A DNA stretch of 64,000 bases from Candidatus Tayloriibacteriota bacterium (lineage in GTDB: Bacteria; Patescibacteriota; Minisyncoccia; Phycocordibacterales; PALSA-1337). The notes beneath the pieces were generated by a model. The model was not told where the DNA came from, ran no database searches, and saw nothing but the letters and a program-made list of their open reading frames with translations. Position numbers and translations under genes: made by a program. Location: the NCBI GenBank assembly GCA_031384385.1, contig JANNAN010000007.1, positions 10,236 to 74,235 on the forward strand, given 5' to 3'. The stretch's first letter is position 1, and the number at the start of each line of letters is the position of its first letter. This document shows, piece by piece, positions 6,968-60,821 of this stretch.

Positions 6968-7369
6968 ATGAAAAAGTATGAAAATCTTATTACTTATGGT
7001 GACGAACAGTCCTTGGCTAATGTTGCTTATCACCACGAAGCCCCACTAACTCGATATGTAATGCTTCAAAAAGATAAAGTGGAAGGTGATGGTGGTTTTA
7101 GAGTGGTATCTCATATAATTAATAATTTACCAGAAGTCGTATCTTCTTATTGTGAATTACATTGGCATGATTTTGATGAAATTAATTTGATTCAATCTGA
7201 AGATAACTCTCTTAAATATAAAATTAAATTAGAAGATGAAACTTATGAAGTTATTGCTCCGGCAACTGTCTATATACCAAAAGGAATTAGGCATTCTGCA
7301 GAAGTTATTTCAGGAAGGGGAGTATTTACTGCAATAACTTTTACTAAAAATTATAGGGCGCAACAATAA
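6968..7369 (+). CDS. Cupin-fold protein (hypothetical)
   Basis: 133 aa. Cupin-like motifs are present: HWHDFDE(x)NL and PKGIRHSAE. Confidence 0.5.
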   Translation: MKKYENLITYGDEQSLANVAYHHEAPLTRYVMLQKDKVEGDGGFRVVSHIINNLPEVVSSYCELHWHDFDEINLIQSEDNSLKYKIKLEDETYEVIAPATVYIPKGIRHSAEVISGRGVFTAITFTKNYRAQQ

Positions 7370-7397
7370 AAATCTTTATCAAATCTTTATTCCGTCT
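7369..7397 (+). promoter_or_regulatory. Copy A of a conserved 27-nt intergenic motif (AAAATCTTTATCAwwTCTTTATTCCGTCT)
   Basis: Near-identical copies occur at 24338-24367 and 28497-28518, and in reverse complement at 60793-60821. Confidence 0.5.
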
Positions 7398-7478
7398 TTA
7401 GAGTTTCTTTATCTCGATCTGGTAAAATCCATGGATTATTAGATAAATTATATAAAATATTAATTTAGGCACCAATTC

Positions 7479-7503
7479 AACCTGTTCCAAAATGGAACAG
7501 GTT
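7479..7503. promoter_or_regulatory. Perfect 10-bp inverted repeat with a 5-nt loop (AACCTGTTCC-AAAAT-GGAACAGGTT): hairpin or operator
   Basis: Read directly from the sequence. It sits in the 300-nt gap between the cupin gene and the DinD-like gene, with no clean T-tract immediately after it. Confidence 0.35.
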
Positions 7504-7602
7504 CAAATAGGTGGAATTTTTGTTCACATCTTACAAACACCTTTTAAACAAAAATAAATTAGATATTTATAACTAAATGTTATAATAGGTAAATAAAATT
7601 AA

Positions 7603-7625
7603 GTTGTAAAGAATTTCTTTACAAC
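7603..7625. promoter_or_regulatory. Perfect 23-bp palindrome GTTGTAAAGAA-T-TTCTTTACAAC, a candidate operator 45 nt upstream of the DinD-like gene
   Basis: 11/11 inverted-repeat arms around a single central T. The position is typical of a repressor operator overlapping a promoter. Confidence 0.45.
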
Positions 7626-7669
7626 TACCAAAATCATCTAAATCTATTATTAATCTAATTTATATAAAT

Positions 7670-8491
7670 ATGGAATATAATCAAATTATTTTATTTAAAG
7701 GAAAGAATATAAGGAGAAAATTACATGAAAATGAATGGTATTTTTCTATTGTTGATATTATTAAGGTTTTAACAGATTCAGATAGTCCTAGTGTATATTG
7801 GTCTGTAATGAAAAGTCGATTAGAAACAGAAGAGAAAATTGAACTGTTTACAATTTGTAAACAGTTGAAATTGGAAGCAGAAGATGGAAAGATGCGAGAA
7901 ACAGACTGCGCAAATCCAGAAGGAATCTTTCGTATTATTCAATCGATCCCATCACCTAAAGCTGAACCATTTAAAAAATGGTTAGCAAAGGTAGGATATG
8001 AAAGAATACAAGAAATTGAGAATCCAGAATTAGCCACAAAGCGTACTAGAGCTTTATATAAATTAAAGGGATATTCTGATGACTGGATAGAAAAAAGAAT
8101 GAGAGGTATTGCTATAAGAGAGGAATTAACTGATGAATGGAAAAATAGAGGAGCAAAAGAACAAAGTGATTATGAAATTTTAACGGCAGAAATATCCAAA
8201 GCTACTTTTGGTGTAACTCCAAATGAATATAAAAAATTAAAAGGATTAGAAAAGGAAAATCTTCGAGATTATATGAATGATTTTGAATTAATATTTACTA
8301 TGCTTGGTGAGAAGTCTACCACAGAGATTCATAAAACAGAGGATTCAAAAGGTATTCCAAAACTTAAAGAAGATGCTAAATTTGGTGGCGAAATCGCTGG
8401 TGGAGCAAGAAAGCAATTAGAGAAAAAGCTTAAGAAATCAATTGTTTCTGAGAGAAATTATAAAAATTTAAATAATAAAAAATTGAAGTAA
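7670..8491 (+). CDS. DinD-like (DNA-damage-inducible protein D family) protein, paralog 1
   Basis: 273 aa. The C-terminal region KGLEKENLRDYMNDFELIFTMLGEKSTTEI resembles E. coli DinD (KGLKKNQKILDHMGSTELAANLFRATQTEE). The N-terminal WYFSIVDIIKVL region is also conserved. It is about 50% identical to the ORF at 19644-20474. Confidence 0.65.
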   Translation: MEYNQIILFKGKNIRRKLHENEWYFSIVDIIKVLTDSDSPSVYWSVMKSRLETEEKIELFTICKQLKLEAEDGKMRETDCANPEGIFRIIQSIPSPKAEPFKKWLAKVGYERIQEIENPELATKRTRALYKLKGYSDDWIEKRMRGIAIREELTDEWKNRGAKEQSDYEILTAEISKATFGVTPNEYKKLKGLEKENLRDYMNDFELIFTMLGEKSTTEIHKTEDSKGIPKLKEDAKFGGEIAGGARKQLEKKLKKSIVSERNYKNLNNKKLK

Positions 8492-19643: not shown

Positions 19644-20474
19644 ATGAATATAAATACTAAAATTACATTTTTTGAGGATAAGGAAATTAGAAAGGTTTGG
19701 GATGATAAGGAGGAGAAATGGTATTTTTCTGTTGTTGATATTGTTAAAGCATTAACCAATAGTTCAATCCCACGAAGATATTGGTCAGATTTGAAAAATA
19801 ACTTGAAAAATGAGGGAAGTGAAGTGTACGAGAAAATCGTACAGTTCAAAATGATAGCCGAAGACGGAAAAGAACGTGATACAGATACAGCAGATGTTGA
19901 GGGTATTTTCCGTCTTATCCAATCAATCCCATCCCCAAATGCTGAACCATTCAAGCTTTGGCTAGCTAGAGTTGGATATGAACGTGTAGAAGAAGCTAAT
20001 GATCCAGAATTGGCTATTAATCGCGCCCTACAAATATACTTAAAGAAAGGATATAGTTTAAATTGGATTAATCAAAGATTAAAGAGTATAGAAATTAGAA
20101 AAGACTTAACAGATGAATGGGATAAAAGAGGTGTAAAGAAAGGTCTAGAATATGCGTTGCTTACTGATGAAATAACTTTTGCTTGGGCTGGACTTTCTAC
20201 AAAAGAATATAAGAATCATAAAGGACTTAAAAAAGAAAATCTTCGAGATAATATGACAAATCTTGAGCTTGTATTAAATATGCTTGCTGAAGCTTCTACA
20301 ACTGCCATATCTGAGAAAGTAGAACCAAAAGATTTTGAAGAAAATAAAAAAGTAGCGCAGGAAGGCGGATCTGTGGCTGGAGTAGCTAGAAAGAAATTGG
20401 AAGAAAAAGTAGGGAAGACGGTGTTGAGTAGTAAGAAGTTTGGGGGTAGAAGAGATAAAGAGAAGTTAAAATAG
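19644..20474 (+). CDS. DinD-like (DNA-damage-inducible protein D family) protein, paralog 2
   Basis: 276 aa, collinear with the 7670-8491 product (WYFSVVDIVKAL, EGIFRLIQSIPSPNAEPFKLWLARVGYERV, KGLKKENLRDNMTNLELVLNMLAEASTT). Confidence 0.65.
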   Translation: MNINTKITFFEDKEIRKVWDDKEEKWYFSVVDIVKALTNSSIPRRYWSDLKNNLKNEGSEVYEKIVQFKMIAEDGKERDTDTADVEGIFRLIQSIPSPNAEPFKLWLARVGYERVEEANDPELAINRALQIYLKKGYSLNWINQRLKSIEIRKDLTDEWDKRGVKKGLEYALLTDEITFAWAGLSTKEYKNHKGLKKENLRDNMTNLELVLNMLAEASTTAISEKVEPKDFEENKKVAQEGGSVAGVARKKLEEKVGKTVLSSKKFGGRRDKEKLK

Positions 20475-24185: not shown

Positions 24186-24337
24186 AATTTTAATTTAGTC
24201 TACTAACGTTGTTGTTTACCGTGGGTTGTTCAAAAAGTCCTCATTTCCTCAATGAGAAGAACAGCGACTTAAAATGATACCATAAAAAATAGAAATAGCA
24301 AGTTTATTGTTTAAGCCATTATTTACTTAAATTATCC

Positions 24338-24367
24338 ACATCTTTATCATTTCTTTATTCCGTCTAC
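24338..24367 (+). promoter_or_regulatory. Copy B of the conserved 27-nt motif, 84 nt upstream of the pilB start codon
   Basis: ACATCTTTATCATTTCTTTATTCCGTCT. A TATAAT-like box lies downstream at 24388-24393. Confidence 0.5.
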
Positions 24368-24424
24368 AGCGTTTCTTTATTCTATCTTTATAATTTCTTC
24401 ATAACTTTTTGATAGATTATCTAT

Positions 24425-25555
24425 ATGTCAGAAAATAAATATCAAATAAATTTAAATGAAAAAATATTACATGATATTCAATCAATAATTGAATTAGTAG
24501 ATTCTATTATTTATCATGCCTATAATCGTAATGCCTCGGATATTCATATGGATCCAACTCCAGAGGGAATTGTAGTCAGATTTAGAATTGATGGTGTTCT
24601 TCTGTATATAGATACATTAAAAAAAGAATATCACGAAGAATTAATAGCTAGAATAAAAGTTTTGGCGAGTTTGAGAACCGATATTCATTTTGTACCACAA
24701 GATGGTCGTTTTAAATTTAATTATGGGAACTGTAATTGTGATATTAGGGTTTCAATTATTCCAACACACTATGGTGAAAATGCAGTTTTAAGAATTTTAA
24801 AAAATGACAATAATATTTCAACTTTATTAAATTTAGGCTTTTCAAACATTGATTGCGAACGAATCACAAATGCATTATCGAATCATCAGGGAATGATTTT
24901 GATTACAGGCCCAACTGGTTCTGGTAAAACTTCTACTCTCTATGCTCTGATTTCTATGCTTTCAACAAAAAATAATTCAATAATAACTCTGGAAGACCCT
25001 ATAGAGTATACAATTCAAGGTGTCAGACAAATTCAAATTCATTCAAAACACGGTATTACTTTTGCGAACGGTCTTCGTTCAATAGTAAGACAAGATCCAG
25101 ATATTATCATGTTAGGTGAAATTCGTGATTCTGAAACAGCACAAGTTGCTACAAATATTTCATTAACAGGCCATTTACTTTTATCAACAATTCATACAAA
25201 TTCTGCGCTCGGAGTTATTCCAAGACTTATGGATATGAAAGTCGATTCATATTTAGTGTCTTCAACTCTTTCTTTGATAATAGCACAAAGACTTGTTCGT
25301 ACTCTATGTCAAATTTGTAAAGGTGATGGCTGTAATATGTGTGGAAATTTGGGATATAAAGGTCGAACAGTTATTGCTGAAGTTATTGTTATTGATGATG
25401 AATTAAGAAAATATATAATGTCACACATTTCAATTTCTGAAATTTCTAGGTATGTAAGAAGTAAAGGTATGTTAAGTATGTATGAAGATGGAATAGAAAA
25501 AGTAGAAAAAGGTATTACAACAAAAGAAGAGATTTTAAGGGTAATTCAAAATTAA
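24425..25555 (+). CDS. pilB: Type IV pilus assembly ATPase (GspE/PilB family, short form lacking the N-terminal domain)
   Basis: Walker A GPTGSGKTST, Walker B/Asp box and His box, and a C-terminal tetracysteine zinc motif (CQICKGDGCNMCG). Confidence 0.85.
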   Translation: MSENKYQINLNEKILHDIQSIIELVDSIIYHAYNRNASDIHMDPTPEGIVVRFRIDGVLLYIDTLKKEYHEELIARIKVLASLRTDIHFVPQDGRFKFNYGNCNCDIRVSIIPTHYGENAVLRILKNDNNISTLLNLGFSNIDCERITNALSNHQGMILITGPTGSGKTSTLYALISMLSTKNNSIITLEDPIEYTIQGVRQIQIHSKHGITFANGLRSIVRQDPDIIMLGEIRDSETAQVATNISLTGHLLLSTIHTNSALGVIPRLMDMKVDSYLVSSTLSLIIAQRLVRTLCQICKGDGCNMCGNLGYKGRTVIAEVIVIDDELRKYIMSHISISEISRYVRSKGMLSMYEDGIEKVEKGITTKEEILRVIQN

Positions 25556-25564
25556 TTTTAAAAT

Positions 25565-26623
25565 ATGAATATAAAATCTAGATTTTCAATTTCAGATCAA
25601 ATTTTCTTTGCTCAAAAACTCTCTTTGCTTTTGAATTCAAATATTTCTCTAGCTGAATCATTAAATATTATTAAATCAATCGACAATTCAAATAATCATA
25701 AAAATTTTTATGAGAAATTGATAAATGATGGCGAGCATGGAATTTCATTATCAAAAAGTATTGTTGATTCAAAGGTTAAATTTGATTCGCTTTTAATTGT
25801 TCTTATAAAAAATGGAGAATATTCAGGCTCTCTCGTTGATTCATTGAATCAAGTTGCTAATAATTTAGATAAAAGAAATGAATTAAATAAAAAATTAATT
25901 AGTACATTAATTTATCCATTATTTATTTTGTTCGCTACCATTGGCATGGCTTTGTTTCTTATTCTTTATATTTTTCCAAAGATTTTACCGTTACTTAGTA
26001 GTTTGAATATTAAACTACCATTGATAACTATTATTATTAAATTTATTTATGAATTTTCAATTTCCTATGGATTATATACATGTTTGATTCTTGTGCTCTC
26101 ATTTATTTGTATAGTTTTTTTAATTAAAAAAAATAAATATATAAAAAATAGATTTCACTATATTTTATTAAAAATTCCAATGTTGGGTTTATATATCAAA
26201 ATAAATACTTTAGCCACAATCTCGGGTACTGGAGAAATTATCTTATCTTCTGGTAGATCATTGAGTGAATTCCATGCTTTTTCTAGAGATTCTGTTAATA
26301 ATTTAATTTTCAAAAATACCTTTGAATCAATTTATTATCAATCAATTCAAGGAATTTCTTTTACAAATTCAATGAAATTATATCCAGATATTTTTGTAAA
26401 GATGATGGTTGATATGTGTGCAATTGGTGAAAAAACAGGTAATTTAGCATTGATGCTTGGTCACTGCTCTAAAATATTTGAACAAGATATTGATTTATTT
26501 TTGAAAAGATTCTCATCCTTAATTGAACCAGTTTTAATGATATTTATGGGTTTAATCGTTGGTTCAATTGCTTTATCAATAATTTTGCCAGTATATGAAA
26601 TCACGAATCATCTTAGTAAATAA
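25565..26623 (+). CDS. pilC: Type IV pilus platform protein (GspF/PilC family)
   Basis: A polytopic membrane protein with T2SS-F-type repeats (FFAQKLSLLLNSNISLAESLNII). Confidence 0.85.
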   Translation: MNIKSRFSISDQIFFAQKLSLLLNSNISLAESLNIIKSIDNSNNHKNFYEKLINDGEHGISLSKSIVDSKVKFDSLLIVLIKNGEYSGSLVDSLNQVANNLDKRNELNKKLISTLIYPLFILFATIGMALFLILYIFPKILPLLSSLNIKLPLITIIIKFIYEFSISYGLYTCLILVLSFICIVFLIKKNKYIKNRFHYILLKIPMLGLYIKINTLATISGTGEIILSSGRSLSEFHAFSRDSVNNLIFKNTFESIYYQSIQGISFTNSMKLYPDIFVKMMVDMCAIGEKTGNLALMLGHCSKIFEQDIDLFLKRFSSLIEPVLMIFMGLIVGSIALSIILPVYEITNHLSK

Positions 26624-28518: not shown

Positions 28519-28585
28519 GAATTTCTTTATCAGATCTTTATCTCATTTGTGTAAGATTAAATTATTATAAATTTAATATTTAAAT

Positions 28586-40784: not shown

Positions 40785-41925
40785 CGATAATTTATTAGAT
40801 TTGATAAATGACGATGATTCCGGACTTCTTGATATTAAAGAGAAGGCTATTTCTATCACCCCAGACGATCGATTATTAGAATCATTTATGGAGATTAATG
40901 ACTTTTTTAAAACTCATAACTCAGAGCCAAAATCTGGTGGTGATATTCACGAGCACAAGCTTTCTTCAAGGTTGAAACATATCAGGGAAAATAAAGATCT
41001 CAAAGAATTTTTATCGAAGTATGATACATATAAACTATTAGCCGTAAGTACTAAGAATTTAGAGACCGTTAGTGATATCTTTGAAGATGATAGTCTTGGC
41101 CTGCTATCAGTTGAAGATACGTCAATTTTTAACATAACAAATGTTCCTGAAGTAGACAAAGATCGTTCGGATCCCGATTTTATTGCCAAGAGAGAAAGAG
41201 TTGTTGATTTTGAAAAATATAAGCATTTGTTTGATCAGTGTCAGAGAGAACTAAAAAACGGAACTAAAAAAATATCAAGTTTTGTTGAGGGTGAAATGAA
41301 AAAAGGTGACTTCTTTGTTTTAAGTGGAGTACTTGTGTATCTTGAGGACATCTTCAACCCTTACAGAGGTAATAGTCAGAAAATAAACCGAAGAACAAGA
41401 TGTATTTATGAAAACGGCACAGAATCAAATGTCTTACTGAGATCTCTTGGAAAGAGACTGTCTGAAGTCGGATATGCTGTTAAGGACAACGACCCGATGC
41501 CTGAAATTGATACCGACGATAAAGAAACTGGATATATTTATGTTTTAAAATCACTCAGTATGGATCCTAGAATTAATAGTACAAGAAATCTTTTTAAGAT
41601 TGGTTTTTCTACCATAACCGTTGAAGAAAGAATTAAAAATGCTGATCAGGATCCTACTTATCTTATGGCACCTGTTTCTATTGTGGCAACCTATAGGTGC
41701 TTTAACATGAACCCTCAAAGACTTGAAAGATTACTTCACCGATTCTTTACTGACTCATGTCTTGATATCGAAATAACTGATAAAAGCGGAAATAAATATA
41801 CTCCCAAGGAATGGTTCGTAGCGCCGATTGTTGTTGTCGAGAAAGTTATAGACCTAATCATAAAGGGAGATATCGTTAATTATGTATATGACAAAAGTAC
41901 TGAAAAAGTCATTTTAAATCAATAA
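40777..41925 (+). CDS. T5orf172/MUG113-type (GIY-YIG superfamily) domain protein
   Basis: GYIYVLKS...(17 aa)...KIGFSTITVEERI matches the T5orf172 pattern GyvYvl...KIGxT...R. The ATG overlaps the helicase stop (ATGAGTAA). The six-frame ORF is extended to 40756 by TTG. Confidence 0.55.
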   Translation: MSNDNLLDLINDDDSGLLDIKEKAISITPDDRLLESFMEINDFFKTHNSEPKSGGDIHEHKLSSRLKHIRENKDLKEFLSKYDTYKLLAVSTKNLETVSDIFEDDSLGLLSVEDTSIFNITNVPEVDKDRSDPDFIAKRERVVDFEKYKHLFDQCQRELKNGTKKISSFVEGEMKKGDFFVLSGVLVYLEDIFNPYRGNSQKINRRTRCIYENGTESNVLLRSLGKRLSEVGYAVKDNDPMPEIDTDDKETGYIYVLKSLSMDPRINSTRNLFKIGFSTITVEERIKNADQDPTYLMAPVSIVATYRCFNMNPQRLERLLHRFFTDSCLDIEITDKSGNKYTPKEWFVAPIVVVEKVIDLIIKGDIVNYVYDKSTEKVILNQ

Positions 41926-41928
41926 AGA

Positions 41929-42654
41929 TTGTTCATGAAAAATATAGAAGAAGGACTCAAAGAGATCTACGAAAATATAAGAAAATTAGAATCCTTAATA
42001 AATACTAAAAATGATCTTACTAGGATACATAAGGACAATGTATTTAATAGGAGATTTTCTGTTGTTCTCAGTGATTTTTCTGATCTTGAAACTATAGGAA
42101 TGAGACTTAATAAAAACATACCTGAAGTTGAGACTTTACAGAGGATTATACAAAAACGCTTCAAGTCCGAAGATAAGGACAGAATTACAGATGAAGGTCA
42201 AAGACTGCACCAAGAATCGGATAAGATTAATCGAGAAAATCAGGTAGATTTCAAATGTTTATATATTTTTTCAAAGATATTTCTTGATCAATATACTACT
42301 CTAATCAAATTATTATTTAATTGGCGAGGTATTGGCGACAAGTCAATTACAAGTTTTTATAATAGCCTAGAAAAATATAAAGGAGAGGAAGAACAGATCA
42401 TTTCTTTTAAAGATAGTTGCTTAAAAAGACTTAAAGCAATTGATGTTTTTGTAACAGAATACCGTGATCAATATGTTGTGCATGATCAAACTAAACATAA
42501 AGATACAAGATGGTTTTTAAATGATATGACGGGCAGTGTTAGATTTATTGGTGGTAGGCCATCAATAACACCACAGGAGTTGGTTTTTGTTGTTTCTAAT
42601 TATATTAAGGACTCCGTCACCTTTATAAAAGATCAAGAAAGCACCCTGAATTAG
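41929..42654 (+). CDS. Hypothetical protein (241 aa), last gene of the four-gene cluster
   Basis: Starts 4 nt after the T5orf172 gene on the same strand. No recognisable motifs. Confidence 0.5.
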   Translation: MFMKNIEEGLKEIYENIRKLESLINTKNDLTRIHKDNVFNRRFSVVLSDFSDLETIGMRLNKNIPEVETLQRIIQKRFKSEDKDRITDEGQRLHQESDKINRENQVDFKCLYIFSKIFLDQYTTLIKLLFNWRGIGDKSITSFYNSLEKYKGEEEQIISFKDSCLKRLKAIDVFVTEYRDQYVVHDQTKHKDTRWFLNDMTGSVRFIGGRPSITPQELVFVVSNYIKDSVTFIKDQESTLN

Positions 42655-42759
42655 GGCCTAAATTGCCCTGTGTACGCTTTTCCAAGCCTATTCAGGGCTT
42701 TTTACGTGTCTTGGCCAATACCCACTAATTTGCACTAATTCCGACCCCATACTTACTGG

Positions 42760-43140
42760 GTCCTGGGAAATTGATTGCACACACTTTTCAACATTTTTAG
42801 CGCCTCATACTATGTGGGTCCAGTAAAAAAGTAGAAATTGACTCCGCACGATTTTCCACGTTTTTACCAGGACATACTTATAGGATCCAAAGAGATAAAA
42901 GTAATTCCTACAGTTAGGAACTTTATACACCTTAGGATAAACCCATAATCTTAGGCCTAAAAAGTAATGCACCATATTTTGCATTTTTTAGAGCCTAGGA
43001 TTAAGTAGTTCTCTGGTCCGAAGTAATTCCTGCAATTAGTGAATTACAAGACCTCAGAATAGACAAATCGGATGACCCAAAAGTAATGCACGTAATTTTG
43101 CATTAAATAAGGTCTACGATACATACATTCCCATTGCACG
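42760..43140. repeat. About six degenerate tandem repeats of ~65 bp (GGRTCC..AAAAGTAR..ATT..GCAC..TTTT..AGGNCT), iteron-like
   Basis: Units begin near 42760, 42819, 42886, 42953, 43016 and 43073. Examples: TAATGCACCATATTTTGCATTTTTTAGAGCCTAGGA vs TAATGCACGTAATTTTGCATTAAATAAGGTCTACGA. Confidence 0.6.
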
Positions 43141-43185
43141 GAAAGAGCTGAGTCAACTTGCAATGGGGACTCAGCTCTTTCTGTT
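43126..43185 (+). promoter_or_regulatory. Two interleaved inverted repeats (CCCATTGCA...TGCAATGGG and AGAGCTGAGTC...GACTCAGCTCT), a pseudoknot-like or alternative-hairpin element followed by CTGTTTTC
   Basis: The arms are ordered a-b-a'-b' with 9-bp and 11-bp stems, immediately upstream of or overlapping the 43163 ORF start. Confidence 0.45.
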
Positions 43186-43510
43186 TTCAAAAAGAGCCAG
43201 CTCGATAAAGGTCGAAAGAAAAACCCTCATGCTTACCAAACACGCACTAGAAGAATACAAAGAAATACATCGCCAGGAAACCGGCGCGGTTTTTCCTGAT
43301 GACGTGTTGGCTAATGAGGCAATTAACTTGCTTACTCTTTTTAACTTTGTCTATCGACCGATCAAAAAAGAGTGGCTGAAAGAATATGGACGACAAAATA
43401 AATCTAAACGAGGAATGGCAGAGAATTCTCAGTCAGAAGAACAAATCGCCGAAACGAGTGGCGAAGTTCGAAGAATTCAAAAAGACCCATCTCGAACAAA
43501 CCAGGAGTGA
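43163..43510 (+). CDS. Small hypothetical protein (115 aa). Overlaps the next ORF in another frame, so possibly not real.
   Basis: ORF only. The start lies inside the hairpin element. Confidence 0.25.
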   Translation: MGTQLFLFSKRASSIKVERKTLMLTKHALEEYKEIHRQETGAVFPDDVLANEAINLLTLFNFVYRPIKKEWLKEYGRQNKSKRGMAENSQSEEQIAETSGEVRRIQKDPSRTNQE

Positions 43511-44375
43511 AATAAATCCGGACACACTTCGCAGTAAGAAAAAGCCTAACAGGTTTGTTGTCGATAACGAGTATGTCAAAGGTTATTATCTGGCGAAATT
43601 TCCACCGGTCTGTTCCCAGGTGCTTTTGACGTTACTTGTCCACTGCAATCTCAATAGACAGGATGCGTTTCCGAGCATTGTCACTATTCAAGAACTCTCC
43701 GGATGTACCAACACTCGAAGTGTCATTAGTGCTCTTAGGATTCTTGAGGCCTACGGGATAATTAACATTCGTCGGTCCAAGAGAGGGGTAAAAGCAGTGA
43801 ATGTCTATTTCTTTCAGTCGGTCCGACATTGGAGACCACTCTCAAAGAGCATGAAAAAGATTAAGCTCACCGATCCATTACCGCAATGGCAAAATCCCGT
43901 CCAGAGCACTGGCAGAAAACAGACCTATCGTACTGGCCCTACTGCCAGTCTAACTAACCTAAGAGAAAACTATAATAATAAAATACAAAATATTGGAGAT
44001 ATTTTAAGGGAAAGATTCAAAATGCCAGAAGACCCGTCTAAGGTTGCTATTCCTACACCTTCTAGCAATACTGTCGTCGATGACAAAAAGGCAGAAGACA
44101 TGGAACCTGATACGCCTGTTAGAACAGGTGAAAAACAAGGGTATCGTACTGGCACTAATGCCACTACGATTGATACCCGTAATAACGGGAAATTAACGGG
44201 AACCGAAAGTCAGAGACATGGCATGTCATCAGCCGTTTATAAACGGGAAATAACGGTCGAAAAACCTCCCGAGGATCCATTTGTAAATGGTGAAAAATGG
44301 ACTAAGGAAGATGAGGGTATCGGTCTGATGAATATCAACAATGAAGATATCGGACCAGGAAGCGCAACATTATAA
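43386..44375 (+). CDS. Winged-helix DNA-binding protein, plasmid/phage replication-initiator-like (Rep-type HTH)
   Basis: LLTLLVHCNLNRQDAFPSIVTIQELSGCTNTRSVISALRILEAYGIINIRR is a typical replication-protein winged-helix. C-terminal repeated ...TGxKQxYRTG... motifs. Located downstream of the iteron-like array. Confidence 0.5.
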   Translation: MDDKINLNEEWQRILSQKNKSPKRVAKFEEFKKTHLEQTRSEINPDTLRSKKKPNRFVVDNEYVKGYYLAKFPPVCSQVLLTLLVHCNLNRQDAFPSIVTIQELSGCTNTRSVISALRILEAYGIINIRRSKRGVKAVNVYFFQSVRHWRPLSKSMKKIKLTDPLPQWQNPVQSTGRKQTYRTGPTASLTNLRENYNNKIQNIGDILRERFKMPEDPSKVAIPTPSSNTVVDDKKAEDMEPDTPVRTGEKQGYRTGTNATTIDTRNNGKLTGTESQRHGMSSAVYKREITVEKPPEDPFVNGEKWTKEDEGIGLMNINNEDIGPGSATL

Positions 44376-44380
44376 AAACT

Positions 44381-46042
44381 ATGAATAATAAAATACCCAC
44401 AATCAAATACTTCCTCTACGCTAGAAAATCTAGTGAAGCGGAAGACAGACAAGCGGCATCAATCGATGCCCAGAAAGATGAACTCTTAAAGATTGCACAA
44501 GAGCAAGGTTTAACCATTGTTGAGATTCTTACCGAATCACAGTCAGCTAAGAAACCAGGAAGACCGATATTCAACAAGATGCTTGAGCGAATCTACAAAG
44601 GCGAAGCAAATGGAATCATTTGTTGGAAGTTGGACCGACTTGCTCGTAACCCAGTAGATGGCGGGCAGATAAGCTGGATGTTACAGCAGAGTGCGATCGC
44701 ACAGATCGTTACGTTCGGCCGAACATACTATCCGACTGATAACGTTCTCATGATGCAGGTTGAGCTTGGAATGGCGAATCAATACATCCGAGACTTGTCG
44801 GTAAACGTAAAGCGAGGACTGGCAAAGAAGGTCCGAGAAGGCTGGCTACCAAGTATGTGTCCAGTCGGGTACATGAGTACACCTGACAGAGAAAAGGGAT
44901 TCAAGACAATCATGAAGGACCCTGATAGATTTCCTGTAGTAAAAAGATTGTTCGATTTAATGCTCAGTGGTAATTACAGCACCTGCCAAATATGGGACGT
45001 GGCTCGTAAGGAGTTGAATCTGAAAACATATCAGCGCAGACATATGGGTGGCAAACATCTTTCCAAAAGTGGTATCTATGCACTCTTGAGCAATCCTTTC
45101 TACTACGGCTGGTTTGAATATCCCTACAAGAGCGGAGAATGGCACAAAGGTGCGCATGAGGCCATGATCACCGAAGAAGAATTCAACAAGGTCCAGATCA
45201 TTATGGGTAGGACTATGCAACCTCGGCCAAGACCAGAGCGCAACTTTGCATTTACTTCACTCATGAAATGTGGCACGTGTGGCTGTAGCATTACTGCTCA
45301 GGCGAAAGTAAAACGCCAGAAGAACGGCAACGTCCACCACTACGTTTATTACAATTGCACCAAGAAAAAAGTAGACGTGAAGTGTCCCGAGCAATGTCTC
45401 GAACTCAAGAACCTCGAACTAGATATCAAAGGCAAGCTAAGCGAGATCACTATTTCAGAAAGATTCAAAGACTGGGCGATCAAGCACCTCCATGAACTCC
45501 GAAAGACGGAAGTCGATAGCGACACCTTGGTCTTTAAGGGCAAACACAAAGAGCTTGAGGAGGTAACAAAGAATTTGCAGTCACTCACGCTCAACTTCAC
45601 CTCACCTAAAAACAGCGAAAGAGCGATAATTACAGACGAAGAATACCAAACTCTCAAAGTTGGAATGGTGAAAAAGAAATTGATCCTCGAAGACGAACTG
45701 AAAGTAAAAAATAAAGAGGTTTTGGAATGGATAGACCTCACCGAGCAGACCTTTGACTTTGCCTGCTATGCCCACATTTGGTTTGAAAAAGGAGACGATA
45801 AAGCCAAAAGAGCGATACTTGCATGTTTAGGCTCGAACCTCACCCTAAAAGGCAAAAAGGTCTTTGTAAATTACCATTCTTTCGTAAAGACACTCATAAA
45901 AAGTCGTCAGGCGGTTGAAGACGAATTAGAGAAGGTTAGAACCTCCAAAGTATCAAGCAATAAAAGACAAAACCCCACAAATTGTGAGGTTTCGTCACTA
46001 GGGCTCCGGCGGCAGGGATCGAACCTGCGACCTTTCCGTTAA
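44381..46042 (+). CDS. Large serine recombinase (integrase). The 3' end overlaps tRNA-Asn on the opposite strand.
   Basis: N-terminal resolvase domain YARKSSEAEDRQAASIDAQ (Ser nucleophile region), a recombinase domain, a zinc ribbon (CGTCGC...YYNCTKKK..C..C) and a C-terminal coiled-coil. 553 aa. Confidence 0.85.
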   Translation: MNNKIPTIKYFLYARKSSEAEDRQAASIDAQKDELLKIAQEQGLTIVEILTESQSAKKPGRPIFNKMLERIYKGEANGIICWKLDRLARNPVDGGQISWMLQQSAIAQIVTFGRTYYPTDNVLMMQVELGMANQYIRDLSVNVKRGLAKKVREGWLPSMCPVGYMSTPDREKGFKTIMKDPDRFPVVKRLFDLMLSGNYSTCQIWDVARKELNLKTYQRRHMGGKHLSKSGIYALLSNPFYYGWFEYPYKSGEWHKGAHEAMITEEEFNKVQIIMGRTMQPRPRPERNFAFTSLMKCGTCGCSITAQAKVKRQKNGNVHHYVYYNCTKKKVDVKCPEQCLELKNLELDIKGKLSEITISERFKDWAIKHLHELRKTEVDSDTLVFKGKHKELEEVTKNLQSLTLNFTSPKNSERAIITDEEYQTLKVGMVKKKLILEDELKVKNKEVLEWIDLTEQTFDFACYAHIWFEKGDDKAKRAILACLGSNLTLKGKKVFVNYHSFVKTLIKSRQAVEDELEKVRTSKVSSNKRQNPTNCEVSSLGLRRQGSNLRPFR

Positions 46043-46075
46043 CAGCGGATTGCTCTACCTCTGAGCTACACCGGA
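46004..46075 (-). tRNA. tRNA-Asn (anticodon GTT)
   Basis: Manual fold on the minus strand: 7-bp acceptor stem (one G-U pair), D arm GCTC-AGAGGTA-GAGC, anticodon loop CTGTTAA, 5-nt variable loop, T arm GCAGG-TTCGATC-CCTGC, discriminator G. No encoded CCA. Confidence 0.8.
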
Positions 46076-46200
46076 ATGTGTATTAATTTCGTTCCTTTTG
46101 TTAAGAACATAAGTATACTATCAGATATATATATAAAAGTGAAGATAAAATAGATTATTATAAATAATAATAAAAGATTATTTGAGCTAGATTTTAAACA

Positions 46201-52252: not shown

Positions 52253-53266
52253 ATGAAATTCTTTTCACAAAAACTCGGCATAGATTTGGGAACTGCGAAT
52301 ACGCTAGTTTTTCTTCCTGGAAAGGGAATTGTTTTGAATGAGCCATCTGTTGTTGCTGTTTCTGAACAAGATAAAAAAGTTCTTGCAGTAGGTTTTGAAG
52401 CAAAGGAAATGATTGGAAGAACTCCAGATAATATTATTGCTTATCGTCCAATGCGTGATGGTGTGATAGCAGATTATAGAGTTACAGAGGCAATGCTTAG
52501 ATATTTTATAAATAAAGCTTTGGGAACTTGGAATATTTTTAAGCCTGAAGTTATGGTTTCTGTACCGGCTGGGATTACTTCTACAGAGAGAAGGGCTGTT
52601 ATTGAGGCCACTATTCGTGCTGGAGCTAGAAATGCTTATGTTGTAAAAGAGCCCATTCTTGCTGCTATTGGTGCTGGAATTTCTATTCAAGAAGCTTGCG
52701 GGCATATGATTGTGGATATTGGCGGTGGAACAACAGATGTTGCTGTGATTTCTCTTGGGGGTATTGTGGCTTCAACATCAGTGAAATGTGCTGGAAGTAA
52801 AATTGATGCAGCGATTACGGATTATATTAAAAAGACTTTCAATTTAGCGATTGGTGATAAGACTGCAGAGGATATAAAAATTAAAATAGGATCGGCAATT
52901 CCACTTGAAGAAGAACTTTCTATGCAAGTAAAGGGTCGTGATTTTATATCTGGACTTCCTCGTTCAACTGAAGTTAAGACAAATGAAATTGTAAAAGCTA
53001 TTTCAAAAGAACTTAGAGATATGATAAAAGCAATTAAAGATGTACTTCAAGAAACTCCACCAGAACTTTCTTCAGATATTATTGATCAAGGTATAATTAT
53101 GACAGGTGGTTCATCAATGCTTCGTAATCTTCCAGAGTTGGTTTTTCGTCGAACTGGTGTAAAGGCTCGTCTTGCTGATGATGCATTGTTCTGTGTGGCA
53201 AAGGGAACAGGAATTGCACTTGAACATTTGGATACATATAAGAAGAGTATAATTAGTAAGAGGTAA
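52253..53266 (+). CDS. mreB: Rod-shape determining actin homolog MreB (copy 1)
   Basis: LGIDLGTANTLVF phosphate-1 motif, DIGGGTTD and the C-terminal adenosine motif. Confidence 0.9.
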   Translation: MKFFSQKLGIDLGTANTLVFLPGKGIVLNEPSVVAVSEQDKKVLAVGFEAKEMIGRTPDNIIAYRPMRDGVIADYRVTEAMLRYFINKALGTWNIFKPEVMVSVPAGITSTERRAVIEATIRAGARNAYVVKEPILAAIGAGISIQEACGHMIVDIGGGTTDVAVISLGGIVASTSVKCAGSKIDAAITDYIKKTFNLAIGDKTAEDIKIKIGSAIPLEEELSMQVKGRDFISGLPRSTEVKTNEIVKAISKELRDMIKAIKDVLQETPPELSSDIIDQGIIMTGGSSMLRNLPELVFRRTGVKARLADDALFCVAKGTGIALEHLDTYKKSIISKR

Positions 53267-55841: not shown

Positions 55842-57077
55842 ATGCGACAATCATTACTATTCACAAAAACTCGTAAAGATGCGCCAAAAGATGAAGTTTC
55901 AAAGAATGCTCAGCTATTGATTCGTGCAGGATTTGTTCACAAAGAAATGGCTGGAGTTTATTCGTATTTACCACTCGGTTTGCGTGTGATGAATAAAATT
56001 ATTGGAATTATTCGGGAAGAGATGAATGCCATTGATGGACAAGAACTTTCTCTAACTGCTTTGCAAGATAAAAATGTCTGGGAAAAATCTGGAAGATGGT
56101 CAGATGAAATTATCGATATCTGGTTTAAAACAGCTTTAAAAAATGGAACTGAAATCGGACTTGGTACAACGCATGAAGAAGAACTTACAAATCTTATGAA
56201 GGATTATGTTCATTCATACAGAGATCTTCCTGTTTATGCTTATCAATTCCAAACAAAATTTAGAAATGAAACTCGTGCAAAGTCTGGAATAATGAGATGT
56301 AGAGAATTCATTATGAAAGATCTATACTCTTTTAGTAAAGATCAAAAATCACATGATGATTATTATGAAAAAGTAAAGCAGTCATATATAAATATCTATA
56401 AAAAAGTTGGTCTTGGCGATAAGACTTATGTTACATTTTCTTCTGGTGGAACATTTTCTAAATATTCTCATGAATTTCAAACAATAACTGATGCTGGTGA
56501 GGATTCTATTTTTATTGATGAAAAGAAAAAGATTGCAATTAATAAAGAAGTTTTAAATGACGAAGTCCTAAAAGATTTGGAAGTTAATAGATCAGACTTA
56601 GTTGAAAAAAAGTCTGTTGAAGTCGGAAATATATTCAATTTGGGAACAAAATTTTCAGATGCATTGGACTTAACTTATTCTGATGAAAAAGATATCAAAC
56701 AAAAGGTAATTATGGGTAGCTATGGAATCGGTCCGGGAAGAGTTATGGGAACTATAGCTGAAGTTCTTTCGGACGATAAGGGTCTAGTATGGCCAGAAGC
56801 CGTTGCTCCATTTGCAATTCATTTAATTTCTATTGAAGATAAAGCAGGAAAGGTCAAGATTGAAGCAGATAAACTTTATGATAGATTGATAAAAAAAGGT
56901 ATTGATGTTCTTTATGATGATAGAGATGCTCGTCCCGGAGAAAAATTCGCAGACAGTGATTTAATTGGAATTCCAAAAAGAATTGTTATAAGTGAAAAAA
57001 CTATAGCGATAGACTCTATAGAAGTAAAAGATCGAATTACAGGGAATACGGAAATAATTAAAAATGAAAGAATTTAA
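55842..57077 (+). CDS. proS: Proline--tRNA ligase (compact form)
   Basis: A class II core with an N-terminus like bacterial ProRS (LLIRAGFVHKEMAGVYSYLPLGLRV) and a C-terminal anticodon-binding domain. Confidence 0.85.
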   Translation: MRQSLLFTKTRKDAPKDEVSKNAQLLIRAGFVHKEMAGVYSYLPLGLRVMNKIIGIIREEMNAIDGQELSLTALQDKNVWEKSGRWSDEIIDIWFKTALKNGTEIGLGTTHEEELTNLMKDYVHSYRDLPVYAYQFQTKFRNETRAKSGIMRCREFIMKDLYSFSKDQKSHDDYYEKVKQSYINIYKKVGLGDKTYVTFSSGGTFSKYSHEFQTITDAGEDSIFIDEKKKIAINKEVLNDEVLKDLEVNRSDLVEKKSVEVGNIFNLGTKFSDALDLTYSDEKDIKQKVIMGSYGIGPGRVMGTIAEVLSDDKGLVWPEAVAPFAIHLISIEDKAGKVKIEADKLYDRLIKKGIDVLYDDRDARPGEKFADSDLIGIPKRIVISEKTIAIDSIEVKDRITGNTEIIKNERI

Positions 57078-58122
57078 GAAAAAATTATATAATTATCTAT
57101 CTAATGATATTGGAATAGATTTAGGAACTGCAAATACACTGGTATATCTTCGTGGTCATGGAATTGTTGTGAATGAACCTTCTGTGGTAGCGGTAAATCA
57201 AAAAACTGGAAGAATCGTGGCTGTGGGTGTTGCGGCAAAAGATATGATTGGGAGAACTCCTTCTCATATTATTGCTATTCGCCCTTTAGTTGATGGAGTT
57301 ATTTCTGATTTTGAAGTTACTGAAGAAATGATTTCATATCTTGTAAAAAAGGCTGAACTTTATTCAAAGAAAATGCTAGGGCCACGCGTTGTTGTTGGTG
57401 TTCCTTCTGGTGTTACAAATGTTGAAATTCGTGCCGTTCGTGATGCTACTAAAAATGCTGGCGCTAGAGAAGTTTACATTGTCGAAGAACCAATGGCGGG
57501 TGCAATCGGAATACGACTCCCTGTTCATGATCCAGTTGGAAGTATGATAATTGATATCGGCGGCGGAACGACAGACATTGCTGTTATTTCTCTTGGTGGC
57601 ATTGTACGCTCTAAAAATTTAAAAATTGCTGGTGATAAATTGAATAATGATATAATTTCTTATATTCGAAATGAATTTAAAATTTTAATTGGTGAAAAAA
57701 CAGCTGAATATATAAAAATTTCTGTTGGTGCGGTTGTAGTAGGTGAACCTCTAGAAACTACGATTCGTGGTCGAGATTTGATAACAGGTCTTCCTAGGGA
57801 GGTTGTTATTACTGACTCTGATATTCGTGAATCAATGAATTCATCGATTGATCTTTTGCTTGAGGCTGCAAAAGAAGTATTGGAGATAACTCCGCCAGAA
57901 ATTCTTTCAGATGTAATGAATAGAGGCATTCATCTTGTCGGTGGAGGTGCTTTGATAAAAGGCCTGGACAAGCTTTTGTCTGAAACTTTAAAGATTCCAG
58001 TTTATATTGCCGAAGATCCATTAACAGCAATTGCTCGTGGCACAGGAATTATTTTAGAAGAATTAGATAAATATCAAGATGTTCTAATACAAAATGAAGA
58101 TGAATTACGAGCTCAAAAGTAG
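57064..58122 (+). CDS. mreB: Rod-shape determining protein MreB (copy 2), first gene of mreBCD-mrdA
   Basis: IGIDLGTANTLVY and DIGGGTTD. It is a paralog of the 52253-53266 gene. Confidence 0.9.
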   Translation: MKEFKKKLYNYLSNDIGIDLGTANTLVYLRGHGIVVNEPSVVAVNQKTGRIVAVGVAAKDMIGRTPSHIIAIRPLVDGVISDFEVTEEMISYLVKKAELYSKKMLGPRVVVGVPSGVTNVEIRAVRDATKNAGAREVYIVEEPMAGAIGIRLPVHDPVGSMIIDIGGGTTDIAVISLGGIVRSKNLKIAGDKLNNDIISYIRNEFKILIGEKTAEYIKISVGAVVVGEPLETTIRGRDLITGLPREVVITDSDIRESMNSSIDLLLEAAKEVLEITPPEILSDVMNRGIHLVGGGALIKGLDKLLSETLKIPVYIAEDPLTAIARGTGIILEELDKYQDVLIQNEDELRAQK

Positions 58123-58840
58123 TATAAAAAGAGGTGGCATCGGTCATACAATAAAAATTGTCCTGGGTATTATTTTGGTGCTTATTATTTTGCATTTTAT
58201 TGCACCAAATTTATTACCATCAATTTTTACAACAATTGTAAAACCATTTTGGAGTTTGGGAAATGTAGAAAATCCAGATATAAATTCTTTTTCAATTAAT
58301 GCACAAAATTCTATAATTGCTCAATTAGAAAAAGAAAATATTGCTCTGAAAGAACGATTGGGTAGACCTATTATAAAAAATTCTGTACTTGCATATATTC
58401 TTAAAAAACCACCATTCACTGTCTATGATTCATTTATTTTAGATATTGGAGTAAAACAAGGAATTTCAATAGGTGATAGTGTATATACTTTTGGTGATAT
58501 TCTAATAGGTGAAATATCAGAAATTTTTCCAACTACTTCAAAAGTGAAATTATATTCTTCATACGGTGAAAAATATAATGTTTTGGTAAGTGATAAAAAT
58601 ATTCAAGCAAGTGCTATCGGTCGAGGTGGCGGATCTTTTGAAATTGTAATTCCTAGAGATATTAAGATTTTAGAAGGTGATACTATTACAATTCCTAATA
58701 TTTCAAATACAGTCTTTGGTCTTGTTGGTAAAATAATTACTGAGCCTGCTAGAGCGTTCTCTACTATTATTTTTTCTCAACCCATAAATATCTATGAACA
58801 AAAATGGGTTATTGTTTCTCTTAAAAATTCTAAAATTTAA
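58094..58840 (+). CDS. mreC: Rod-shape determining protein MreC
   Basis: N-terminal TM segment, a coiled-coil (LEKENIALKERL) and a beta-rich C-terminus. Positioned after mreB. Confidence 0.7.
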   Translation: MKMNYELKSSIKRGGIGHTIKIVLGIILVLIILHFIAPNLLPSIFTTIVKPFWSLGNVENPDINSFSINAQNSIIAQLEKENIALKERLGRPIIKNSVLAYILKKPPFTVYDSFILDIGVKQGISIGDSVYTFGDILIGEISEIFPTTSKVKLYSSYGEKYNVLVSDKNIQASAIGRGGGSFEIVIPRDIKILEGDTITIPNISNTVFGLVGKIITEPARAFSTIIFSQPINIYEQKWVIVSLKNSKI

Positions 58841-59115
58841 TGAAGAAAAATATTTTAATTAGAATTATATTAGGTATCATTATGTTTTGTTGCATGATGT
58901 GGGGTTATTGGTGGTTAACATGGTGTCTAGCGATTGTTCTACTTTTTTATTTTCCAATTTATTATGAAATAATAGCGTGGGGTATTTTGTATGATTCATT
59001 ATATGGTATTGCATTACCAGAATTTTGGAATATAAATTATATTTTTACAATATCAAGTATTATTCTATTTTTAATTTCAATATTTCTTAAAAAAAGATTA
59101 ATAATTTATGAATAA
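58840..59115 (+). CDS. mreD: Rod-shape determining protein MreD-like small membrane protein
   Basis: 91-aa polytopic membrane protein in the canonical position. Confidence 0.5.
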   Translation: MKKNILIRIILGIIMFCCMMWGYWWLTWCLAIVLLFYFPIYYEIIAWGILYDSLYGIALPEFWNINYIFTISSIILFLISIFLKKRLIIYE

Positions 59116-60778
59116 AAATTTAAGAAAAAATAGAGAAATTGAACCAGATGAGATTTTTTTAGATTCTCACAATTTACCACAATTCGATGATCAGCAATTT
59201 GAAGGTCGTATGGAAAAACCTATATCAAGACTAAGTCTTGTGTCGGTTATTATTTTTTTTGTAATTATCATTTTAACATTTGGTACTAAAATATGGGCAT
59301 TACAAATAAATAATGGTACAAAATATAATAATATTAGTGAACAAAATAGGCTTCGTCATACACCCATTTTTGCTGCAAGAGGTGTTATTTATGATAAAAA
59401 TGCCGTGGAATTAGCTTGGAATGCTCCCGGTAATGATCCAGATATTTCTTTAAGAAAATATAAAGATTTACCAGGTCTAGCACATGTTATTGGTTATGTT
59501 CAATATCCAACAAAAGATAATGCTGGATTCTATTATCGTGAGGATTTCGAAGGTGTTGACGGCATTGAAAAATATTTCAATTTGAAATTAAAAGGTAAAA
59601 ATGGTTTGAAATTAATTGAAGTTGATGCACATAATCAAATTCAATCAGAAAATACAATTGAACCACCAAAAGAAGGTGATAGTGTTAATCTTTCAATTGA
59701 TTATCGTCTTCAGTCAGAAATGTACAGAGCAATAAAAGATATTGCTGAAAGAGTGGGTTTTGATGGTGGCGCTGGGGTAATGATGGATATTACAACCGGT
59801 GAAATCGTTGCAATGACTAGTTATCCAGAATATAGTTCAGAAATAATGTCATCAAAAACTGATTCTGTAAAAGTAAAATCATTTTTAAAAAATAAGAATA
59901 AACCTTTTTTGGATAGAGTAATTGATGGATTATATACTCCCGGTTCTATTCTAAAAACATATGTAGGACTTGGCGCATTAAATGAAGGTATTGTGACTGA
60001 GTTCACAAGTATTTTAAGTACAGGTTCTATTTCTGTTCAAAATCAATATTATAAAGATATACAAACAGTTTTTAGAGATTGGAAAGCCCATGGATATGTT
60101 GATATTAGACACGCAGTTGCTGTTTCTTCAGATGTTTATTTTTATGAAGTAGGAGGAGGTTATAAAGATCAAAAAGGTCTTGGAATCACTTTATTAGAAA
60201 AATATTTCAAAATGTTTGGTTTTGGTGAAAGAATAGAGAATTCTTTTTTTACAGGTGCTATTGGAACAATTCCTAACCCTGATTGGAAAAAAAAGTATTT
60301 TAATGGAGAATCTTGGAATTTGGGAGATACATATCATACAGCAATTGGGCAATATGGTTTTCAAGTCTCTCCTTTGCAGGCGGTTCGCGCATTAGTTGCT
60401 ATCATAAATAATGGTTTATTGAGAGATCCAAGTATTATAAAAGGTCAAGCTGGTCCAGTACTTAGACAAATAGATATTCCAGTAAAATATTTTAATATAA
60501 TAAAAGAGGGAATGCGTCTTGGTGTTTTAAAAGGAACTGGAACTTCACTAAATGTTCCTTATGTGGAAGTTGCTTCAAAATCTGGAACAGCAGAACTTGG
60601 TGTAGCCAAAGACAATGTTAATTCTTGGATGACTGGATATTTTCCATATAAAAATCCCAAATATGCTTTTGCGGTATTAATGGAAAGAGGTTCTATTCAT
60701 AATCTTATTGGTGCTGGGGCTGTAATGAGAGAAATGCTAGATTGGATGAATGTGAATACACCGGAGTATTTTATGTAA
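59108..60778 (+). CDS. mrdA: Penicillin-binding protein 2 (elongasome transpeptidase)
   Basis: An N-terminal TM and dimerisation domain with a transpeptidase carrying SxxK (GSILK), SxD (SSD) and KSG(T) motifs. Confidence 0.85.
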   Translation: MNKNLRKNREIEPDEIFLDSHNLPQFDDQQFEGRMEKPISRLSLVSVIIFFVIIILTFGTKIWALQINNGTKYNNISEQNRLRHTPIFAARGVIYDKNAVELAWNAPGNDPDISLRKYKDLPGLAHVIGYVQYPTKDNAGFYYREDFEGVDGIEKYFNLKLKGKNGLKLIEVDAHNQIQSENTIEPPKEGDSVNLSIDYRLQSEMYRAIKDIAERVGFDGGAGVMMDITTGEIVAMTSYPEYSSEIMSSKTDSVKVKSFLKNKNKPFLDRVIDGLYTPGSILKTYVGLGALNEGIVTEFTSILSTGSISVQNQYYKDIQTVFRDWKAHGYVDIRHAVAVSSDVYFYEVGGGYKDQKGLGITLLEKYFKMFGFGERIENSFFTGAIGTIPNPDWKKKYFNGESWNLGDTYHTAIGQYGFQVSPLQAVRALVAIINNGLLRDPSIIKGQAGPVLRQIDIPVKYFNIIKEGMRLGVLKGTGTSLNVPYVEVASKSGTAELGVAKDNVNSWMTGYFPYKNPKYAFAVLMERGSIHNLIGAGAVMREMLDWMNVNTPEYFM

Positions 60779-60792
60779 TTCACTACTTATCC

Positions 60793-60821
60793 CCACGAAA
60801 TAAAGAAATGATAAAGATTTT
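60793..60821 (-). promoter_or_regulatory. Copy D of the conserved 27-nt motif, in reverse orientation
   Basis: The reverse complement reads AAAATCTTTATCATTTCTTTATTTCGTGG, one mismatch from copy B. Confidence 0.45.

Follow-up and report, generated by a model that had tools for sequence, protein, structure and literature searches.

Among the genes of the 64 kb stretch of DNA analysed here (the window; GC content about 32%) are a pilB-pilC operon, a major type IV pilin gene, a Bro-N domain gene followed by dnaG and rpoD, and a gene for a small coiled-coil protein. A copy of one intergenic repeat lies ahead of each. In three of these copies (A, B and C) the repeat is an array of T-rich heptamers that recur in exact 11 bp steps and stop a short, fixed distance before a -10 hexamer, and in the remaining one (copy D) it is a pair of units in inverted orientation. 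The homologs of the window PilB, DnaG and PBP2 belong to Patescibacteria/Paceibacteria genomes that bear the labels Taylorbacteria, Nomurabacteria or Paceibacterota, and the host is a Paceibacteria-type patescibacterium of an uncultivated lineage. In the literature searched we found no description of the cis-regulatory logic of Paceibacteria (Parcubacteria), of such a motif or of their regulators. For comparison we examined the pilB loci of relatives (L001 and L003-L008, with PilB proteins 73-87% identical to that of the window) along with the loci L135-L137, L138 and L139; a PilB search of genome contigs yielded four close relatives only. The Pfam scan covered about 50 of the 63 open reading frames (ORFs) of the window, and gene tables were available for 11 related loci, amounting to about 230 kb.

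Phased heptamer arrays and their promoters

An initial annotation of the window had described a 27-nt motif in four copies. All the copies are real, including the degenerate fourth one (copy C, 28498-28545), but the 27-nt unit proves to be the 5' part of longer phased arrays. The sequence ATCTTTATCAWWTCTTTATTCCGTCT recurs exactly at 7372-7397 and 24340-24365 on the forward strand and with three mismatches at 60793-60818 on the reverse strand, and has no match in shuffled sequence. The arrays and the elements that accompany them are as follows:

7372-7412, forward strand: array A, four units (TCTTTAT at 7373, 7384 and 7406; TCTTTAG at 7395)
7420-7428, forward strand: extended -10 element TGg TAAAAT, 10 bp past the last unit of array A (7406-7412), with a predicted start at about 7435
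24332-24340, forward strand: TTATCCACA box, abutting unit 1 of array B and identical to the canonical DnaA-box 9-mer
24341-24402, forward strand: array B, six units before pilB (24341, 24352, 24363, 24374, 24385 and 24396)
24410-24418, forward strand: extended -10 element TGa TAGATT of pilB, 10 bp past the last unit (hexamer 24413-24418)
28502-28541, forward strand: array C, four units before the major pilin gene (28502, 28513, 28524 and 28535)
28552-28557, forward strand: -10 hexamer TAAGAT of the pilin gene, 10 bp past array C and 28 nt before the ATG
60787-60795, forward strand: TTATCCCCA box of copy D, oriented toward the gene at 60895
60800-60817, reverse strand: copy D, a contiguous pair of units in inverted orientation (forward-strand ATAAAGA at 60800-60806 and 60811-60817)

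The arrays consist of two to six heptamers TCTTTAT (general form TCTTWAK) in exact 11 bp steps. Each unit thereby comprises a conserved heptamer and four variable bases, with one heptamer per turn of the DNA, and this phase brings all the heptamers to the same side of the helix. Some internal units, GTCTACAGCGT for example, are degenerate but stay in phase; in array B the third unit (24363) is the degenerate TCTACAG and the sixth reads TCTTCAT.

The bare word TCTTTAT is found 57 times in the window against 31 expected occurrences, an enrichment of about 1.8-fold. A metagenome scan was queried with the 19-mer ATCTTTATCATTTCTTWAK, which spans two units; nearly all of its listed matches are chance occurrences inside coding DNA of unrelated AT-rich organisms, the true-looking arrays among those listed being L088, L099 and perhaps L092. 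Thus, with the heptamer only weakly enriched and the two-unit 19-mer mostly due to chance, the signal resides in the phased arrays and not in the word. A four-unit phased score of at least 22 out of 28 is attained in the window by A, B and C only, the maximum in 30 shuffles being 21, and in a position-weight scan the three-unit scores of 29-34 compare with a null maximum of 16. A low-complexity TCTTTAT background, the explanation that could have undone the motif, does not account for these figures: the word is weakly enriched, but phased arrays are absent from shuffles.

In all 19 array promoters of the window and its relatives a hexamer of the form TAnnnT follows the last array unit at a distance of 10-11 bp. 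These promoters were anchored on the last good unit, whereupon 17 fitted by rule and two after a spurious extra "unit" had been dropped by eye. Many of the hexamers carry TG one base upstream, as in extended -10 elements. A consensus promoter scan found neither a canonical -35 nor a -35/-10 pair above chance at the array promoters, a chance-level outcome that fits promoters lacking a -35. The array would take the place of the latter, with units at about -29/-23, -40/-34, -51/-45 and onward. The probable functional -10 elements of pilB and the pilin gene are thus TAGATT and TAAGAT, each 10 bp past the last unit, rather than the TATAAT-like boxes that had been pointed out between the motif and the start codons. 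Similarly, the identical 84-nt offset reported for these two genes is arithmetically right (24425-24341 and 28586-28502), but has no shared meaning. It is made up of six units plus 22 nt at pilB versus four units plus 44 nt at the pilin gene, and the corresponding offsets in L004 are unequal (62 versus 84 nt); the match is therefore a coincidence.

Downstream genes and their conservation

The genes downstream of arrays B and C form a pilus locus, and a divergent ADK-like gene lies on the other side of array B:

24425-28490, forward strand: pilus operon (Pfam and ORF translations; synteny in L001, L003 and L004), with the five genes that follow
24425-25555, forward strand: short PilB-type ATPase of 376 amino acids (aa), the first gene of the operon
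25565-26623, forward strand: PilC/T2SSF protein
26595-27926, forward strand: pilin-like LVIVD protein
27923-28105, forward strand: minor-pilin-like ORF of 60 aa
28098-28490, forward strand: membrane protein of 130 aa
28586-29086, forward strand: major type IV pilin gene (Pfam N_methyl; tblastn orthologs)

Six of the relatives (L001 and L003-L007; PilB 75-87% identical) have arrays before both pilB and the pilin gene, whereas the more distant L008 (PilB 73%) has a degenerate array before pilB, its pilin gene being outside the locus. The comparison of motif positions in related genomes, which had been proposed as a check, thus comes out in favour of the motif, and so does the earlier suggestion of a shared promoter or transcription-factor site that co-regulates pilus genes: the arrays are associated with promoters, common to the pilB operon and the pilin gene, and conserved in relatives. 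Across these genomes the heptamer drifts (TCTTTAT, TCTTTAG, TCTTAAG and TCTTAAT) while the 11-bp phase stays constant, and the pilB array shows an autocorrelation peak at lag 11 in all eight genomes. The mean identity of arrays is 0.82 within a genome versus 0.70 between orthologous arrays, and two genomes, L004 and L007, show complete identity (100% over 41 nt) between their pilB and pilin arrays, even in the spacers. The arrays thus evolve in concert, through either co-evolution with one factor or gene conversion.

In all eight genomes (seven scored, and L008 read by eye) exactly 6 nt separate the hexamer TAnnnT from the ATG of pilB, and this gap predicts a leaderless pilB mRNA. Such an mRNA is plausible because, among 52 window genes, a TAnnnT most often precedes the start codon by 6 nt (10 genes) and few genes (4 of the 52) have a Shine-Dalgarno-like sequence. 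This suggests that leaderless mRNAs are widespread in the host; the gene starts surveyed include those at 6968, 11536, 17241 (reverse strand) and 24425. For the pilin gene, six orthologs have an assigned start codon, and in these 27-29 nt separate the -10 from the ATG.

Array A was initially thought to lack an obvious downstream gene. It is preceded by rpoB, rpoC and two small ORFs, and followed by a Bro-N gene, dnaG and rpoD:

7435-7669, forward strand: predicted structured 5' leader of the Bro-N mRNA (235 nt; fold z = -5.25 versus shuffles)
7670-8491, forward strand: Bro-N domain gene (Pfam Bro-N, E = 1.6e-13), probable target of array A

L135 is the closest relative (DnaG 96% identical) and has a five-unit array before the orthologous Bro-N gene, and in L136 a four-unit array lies directly before a KilA-N gene in the matching slot ahead of dnaG-rpoD. 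Array A is therefore conserved before a Bro-N/KilA-N gene. The predicted leader comprises a hairpin at 7476-7506 and a long-range helix (inverted repeat I1) pairing about 7443-7468 with 7638-7664, in which one compensatory change from U-A to C-G is seen relative to L135, the comparison being of two sequences only. A role of this helix in sequestering the stretch that leads up to the Bro-N ATG is suggestive at best. The window encodes two Bro-N paralogs (7670-8491 and 19644-20474), which are 50% identical to each other, and relatives have KilA-N proteins instead (L136:8953-9816 and L137:264-1091) with a weak C-terminal similarity to the Bro-N proteins (E = 0.005). These sequences suggest that the DNA-binding domain has been swapped in a conserved host gene beside dnaG-rpoD. 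The adjacent Bro-N/KilA-N protein as an autoregulator is a weakened candidate, the motif being constant though the domain differs between the window and L135 (Bro-N) on the one hand and L136 (KilA-N) on the other; nevertheless, paralogs that may exist elsewhere in the genome could still bind the arrays. A consensus match for IHF in copy A (TATCAAATCTTTA) is not kept in the other copies, and an IHF site was accordingly rejected. The two ORFs between rpoC and array A (6303-7369), which encode a membrane protein of 204 aa and a protein of 133 aa, are absent from the closest relative (L135:8615-9122).

Copy D is located between the genes for PBP2 and the coiled-coil protein, which are followed by mraZ and mraW:

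60834-60864, forward strand: ATTGCAT-N18-TATAAT, the likely core promoter of the gene at 60895, downstream of copy D
60895-61389, forward strand: 164-aa coiled-coil protein with N-terminal PKYFKEF repeats, in one gene cassette with copy D

The description of copy D as copy B with one mismatch holds for about 24 nt, after which the two diverge; copy D has only two contiguous units. On the reverse strand these begin at 60817 and 60806, and a distal third unit begins at 60849 (60843-60849), about three turns away. L138 and L139 lack the cassette of coiled-coil gene and copy D in the interval from PBP2 to mraZ, and in L001/L135 an identical two-unit element precedes a similar coiled-coil gene elsewhere in the genome. 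The element thus travels with the coiled-coil gene and not with PBP2, and belongs to the downstream gene, contrary to the initial view that this copy, too, had none. In L001 the same ATTGCAT...TTATACT pair is present, with the units 10 nt (one helical turn) further away. Copy D is probably an upstream site of an otherwise complete promoter of the coiled-coil gene; the consensus promoter scan made no call at this ATTGCAT-N18-TATAAT. As an antisense promoter reading into PBP2, copy D was rejected: the hexamer at the right distance, TAAGTA, does not end in T, and the equivalent element of L001 lacks such a hexamer. In L139 this position reads TAAGTT and such a role may exist, but it is less favoured. 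L139 further has a composite of a TTATCC[AC]CA-type box and inverted units upstream of a NYN gene. Across the window and its relatives (296 kb) 9 of the 19 copies of TTATCC[AC]CA abut an array, and we treat this box as an array-associated element.

Around copy D the window has two MreB paralogs within one 6-kb stretch (52253-53266 and 57064-58122), the second of which is followed by mreC, a mreD-like ORF and PBP2. Upstream of mraZ (at 61577) the region 61450-61520 contains AAGTGG at 61450, 61481 and 61502 and the weaker repeats AATGGT (61492) and AAGTAGG (61513) in a 10-11 bp phase, and is kept in L138; judged by their sequence, the AAGTGG repeats are typical MraZ-binding repeats.

Arrays are likewise found upstream of an RNA gene in relatives. 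In L004 and L006 a four-unit array with its -10 hexamer precedes the following gene:

L004:5812-5884, reverse strand: 73-nt gene for an RNA resembling transfer-messenger RNA (tmRNA), with a partial copy at the left end of L006

The similarity of the 73-nt RNA to the Rfam tmRNA model is confined to both ends of the latter, that is, the tRNA-like domain, and the RNA has a G3:U70 acceptor pair; about 304 positions of the model are replaced by 12 nt. Its score of 32.9 bits is below the gathering score of 47, with E = 2e-11 in a small search, and ARAGORN makes no call on it. From its sequence it looks like a tmRNA-like RNA without the mRNA-like domain. The mature 5' end of this RNA is downstream of the array, and the array is therefore upstream of the transcription start. 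A search of Rfam brought up no known RNA family either at the window copies or downstream of them. The arrays are thus not specific to pili, as they also precede the Bro-N/KilA-N gene, the tmRNA-like RNA and the coiled-coil gene.

Elsewhere in the window, 34700-46080 is a probable integrated element beside tRNA-Asn (46001-46076, reverse strand), with a GC content of up to 0.43 and genes for Fic, a MmeI-type restriction-modification enzyme, a helicase, T5orf172/MUG113 and HTH_36 proteins and a large serine recombinase.

A putative operator and its alternatives

We consider the arrays to be a promoter module specific to this lineage, with the four copies as its instances, and to serve as operators of a putative tandem-binding activator; we give this interpretation a probability of roughly 0.6. 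A DNA-binding protein would bind the units head-to-tail and cooperatively, and would recruit a sigma-70-type RNA polymerase. In the main form (A, B and C) the array would substitute for the -35, with its last heptamer ending 10-11 bp before a -10 that is often extended by TG. The two-unit inverted form with its TTATCC[AC]CA box (copy D) would instead act as an upstream site of the coiled-coil promoter. The regulon would include the pilB-pilC operon, apparently leaderless, the major pilin gene and the Bro-N/KilA-N gene before dnaG-rpoD, and in relatives would also take in the tmRNA-like small RNA. The binding of a protein, activation rather than repression, the transcription starts and the family of the protein are what we infer here, and the likeness of arrays within a genome fits their co-evolution with one trans-acting factor. 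Several points weigh against this interpretation. Neither the scanned window ORFs nor the related loci contain a response regulator or winged-helix (Trans_reg_C) gene, and Patescibacteria have small regulator repertoires. The inverted two-unit form of copy D is not the usual mode of PhoB-type activators. The within-genome identity, which extends to the spacers, could also result from gene conversion of a factor-independent cassette. Finally, the units are AT-rich and resemble -10 elements, and alternative starts may lie inside the arrays.

The arrays might instead be factor-independent promoter elements, with T-rich heptamers read by the polymerase itself (through the C-terminal domain of its alpha subunit or a lineage-specific feature) or acting by curvature, and would then constitute a strong-promoter cassette for highly expressed genes. 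This is unlikely, though not without support: the targets include two genes expected to be very highly expressed, those for the major pilin and the tmRNA-like RNA, the Pfam scans of the window ORFs brought up no regulator gene, and gene conversion could have spread cassettes that are nearly identical throughout a genome. Yet each unit is a defined heptamer with an invariant C, its TTTA contains a TpA step that makes a poor A-tract for bending, and it co-varies between genomes as a word recognized by a protein would. Moreover, arrays are missing from the promoters of rpoB/rpoC and of other housekeeping genes in these loci, and copy D is inverted. The initial proposal of an UP element fits poorly, as such elements are A/T-only tracts situated at about -40 to -60 and followed by a normal -35, whereas the arrays have the invariant C, reach to about -23 and replace the -35. 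A slightly smaller chance attaches to a repressor or a nucleoid-type silencer that polymerizes over the -35 region and keeps the pilus genes off until a signal arrives. The arrays do overlap the region that polymerase must occupy, and ArcA uses a multi-repeat architecture with 11-bp spacing mainly to repress (PMC3798270). However, promoters without a recognizable -35 would be weak unaided, and yet these serve the pilin and stable RNA genes; likewise, a constant spacing of 10-11 bp from the -10 is what class II activators typically show, while the position of a repressor can vary.

Very improbable, in our estimate, is a system nucleated by DnaA, in which the DnaA-box 9-mer would seed a DnaA-ATP filament along weak sites spaced by 11 bp; such arrays would tie the transcription of pilus genes to the replication cycle, or else be the mark of an origin. 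In its support, the TTATCCACA box abuts array B and the TTATCCCCA box abuts copy D, as do the other array-associated copies their own arrays, and the E. coli oriC has weak sites of a single orientation with 11-bp spacing beside a strong box. Against this, the array units lack the CACA half of the DnaA box, and no box accompanies arrays A and C or most of the pilin arrays. The DnaA consensus TTATNCACA is matched perfectly at 24332-24340, but 60787-60795 and half of the relatives read TTATCCCCA, with a C at a conserved position where DnaA normally needs an A. The window also has no origin signature: its cumulative GC skew rises monotonically without a switch, dnaA and dnaN are missing, and boxes occur singly and not in clusters. 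The possibility that the copies are mobile or selfish elements resembling miniature inverted-repeat transposable elements (MITEs), or chance low-complexity repeats, is effectively refuted. There are several dispersed copies, one of them inverted, and a two-unit 19-mer is common by chance in AT-rich metagenomic DNA. Nevertheless, no inverted repeats or target duplications flank any copy, which disposes of the "MITE-like" label of the initial annotation; from one genome to another the copies occupy orthologous sites, with a constant spacing to the -10 hexamers, and phased arrays never arise in shuffles. A synthesis of several of these ideas is a long shot, less probable than the silencer but more so than DnaA nucleation. 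Here a clade-specific master regulator, perhaps of a family so far unrecognized as binding tandem repeats, such as the Bro-N/KilA-N proteins, one of which is itself array-controlled, would act through a cassette evolving in concert within each genome. Its compact regulon would join pili, an ssrA-like RNA reduced to the tRNA-like domain and the surroundings of dnaG-rpoD, with the DnaA box as a tie of the pilB promoter to replication.

The arrays could have uses beyond this locus. Current views give type IV pili a central part in the life of Patescibacteria as epibionts and in their DNA uptake. The module could serve as a marker with which to predict pilus regulons in metagenome-assembled genomes, the arrays of about 45-65 bp could be bait for the regulator in DNA affinity purification sequencing (DAP-seq) or pull-down experiments, and genetic tools developed for the group could draw on the array promoters, which are candidates for strong or regulated expression. 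In Saccharibacteria there is experimental support for a role of type IV pili (PMC11623550, PMC10633639).

Comparison with known operator systems

Two systems share individual traits with the arrays. The MraZ-binding sites upstream of the dcw cluster likewise consist of direct repeats, their period is 10-11 bp and the protein that binds them is oligomeric, but MraZ was rejected as the binder of TCTTTAT, as the region upstream of mraZ carries the different AAGTGG repeats, in L138 as well. GAAC, as in the -35 of extracytoplasmic function (ECF) sigma factors, is present in the L004 units, but its spacing to the -10 is wrong and the window units lack it; this candidate, too, was discarded.

The boxes of PmrA/BasR (CTTAAT/CTTAAG-N5-CTTAAT) and of CtrA (TTAA-N7-TTAA) both belong to regulators of the OmpR/PhoB family and have an 11-bp period, and CtrA controls (activates) pilA in Caulobacter. 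The units of L003, L004 and L006 read CTTAAG-N5-CTTAAT, which is equivalent to TTAA-N7-TTAA, whereas the window unit TCTTTAT contains no TTAA and the regulators compared are proteobacterial. We take this resemblance as a lead only. The ArcA sites of E. coli are comparable in their variable number of repeats and 11-bp spacing, and in copy D the distal third unit is about three turns off; they differ from the arrays, with their fixed distance to the -10, in having no fixed promoter position or orientation and in mostly mediating repression. Two to five repeats are found in ArcA sites, with a centre-to-centre spacing of 11 bp and sometimes 22 bp (PMC3798270).

The closest architectural parallel that we can draw is with the pho boxes of PhoB/PhoP, which are 11-nt units arranged head-to-tail, two to six in succession, in the place of the -35. 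In E. coli pho promoters the array ends about 10 bp before the -10. The arrays, both in the window and in relatives, are composed of 11-nt direct repeats with about seven conserved and four variable bases; they have at least two units in the same orientation, with weak internal units in the longer arrays, and lie at a fixed short distance before the -10 in place of the -35, as judged from predicted starts. In the pho boxes themselves, the 11-nt direct-repeat units have seven conserved and four less conserved bases (PMC4415409), and the PhoP operators of Streptomyces have two to six units, of which poorly conserved internal ones are bound cooperatively (PMC2275107). The two differ in the heptamer, which is TCTTWAK here versus CTGTCAT or GTTCACC, and in the targets, which here are pilus genes, the Bro-N/KilA-N gene and a small RNA and not phosphate genes. 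They further differ in the inverted two-unit form with its adjoining TTATCC[AC]CA box and in the lack of a cognate regulator in the loci examined. The arrays are thus probably a mechanistically familiar kind of switch: the module is real and conserved, and its design is a familiar one, in a lineage that is poorly known.

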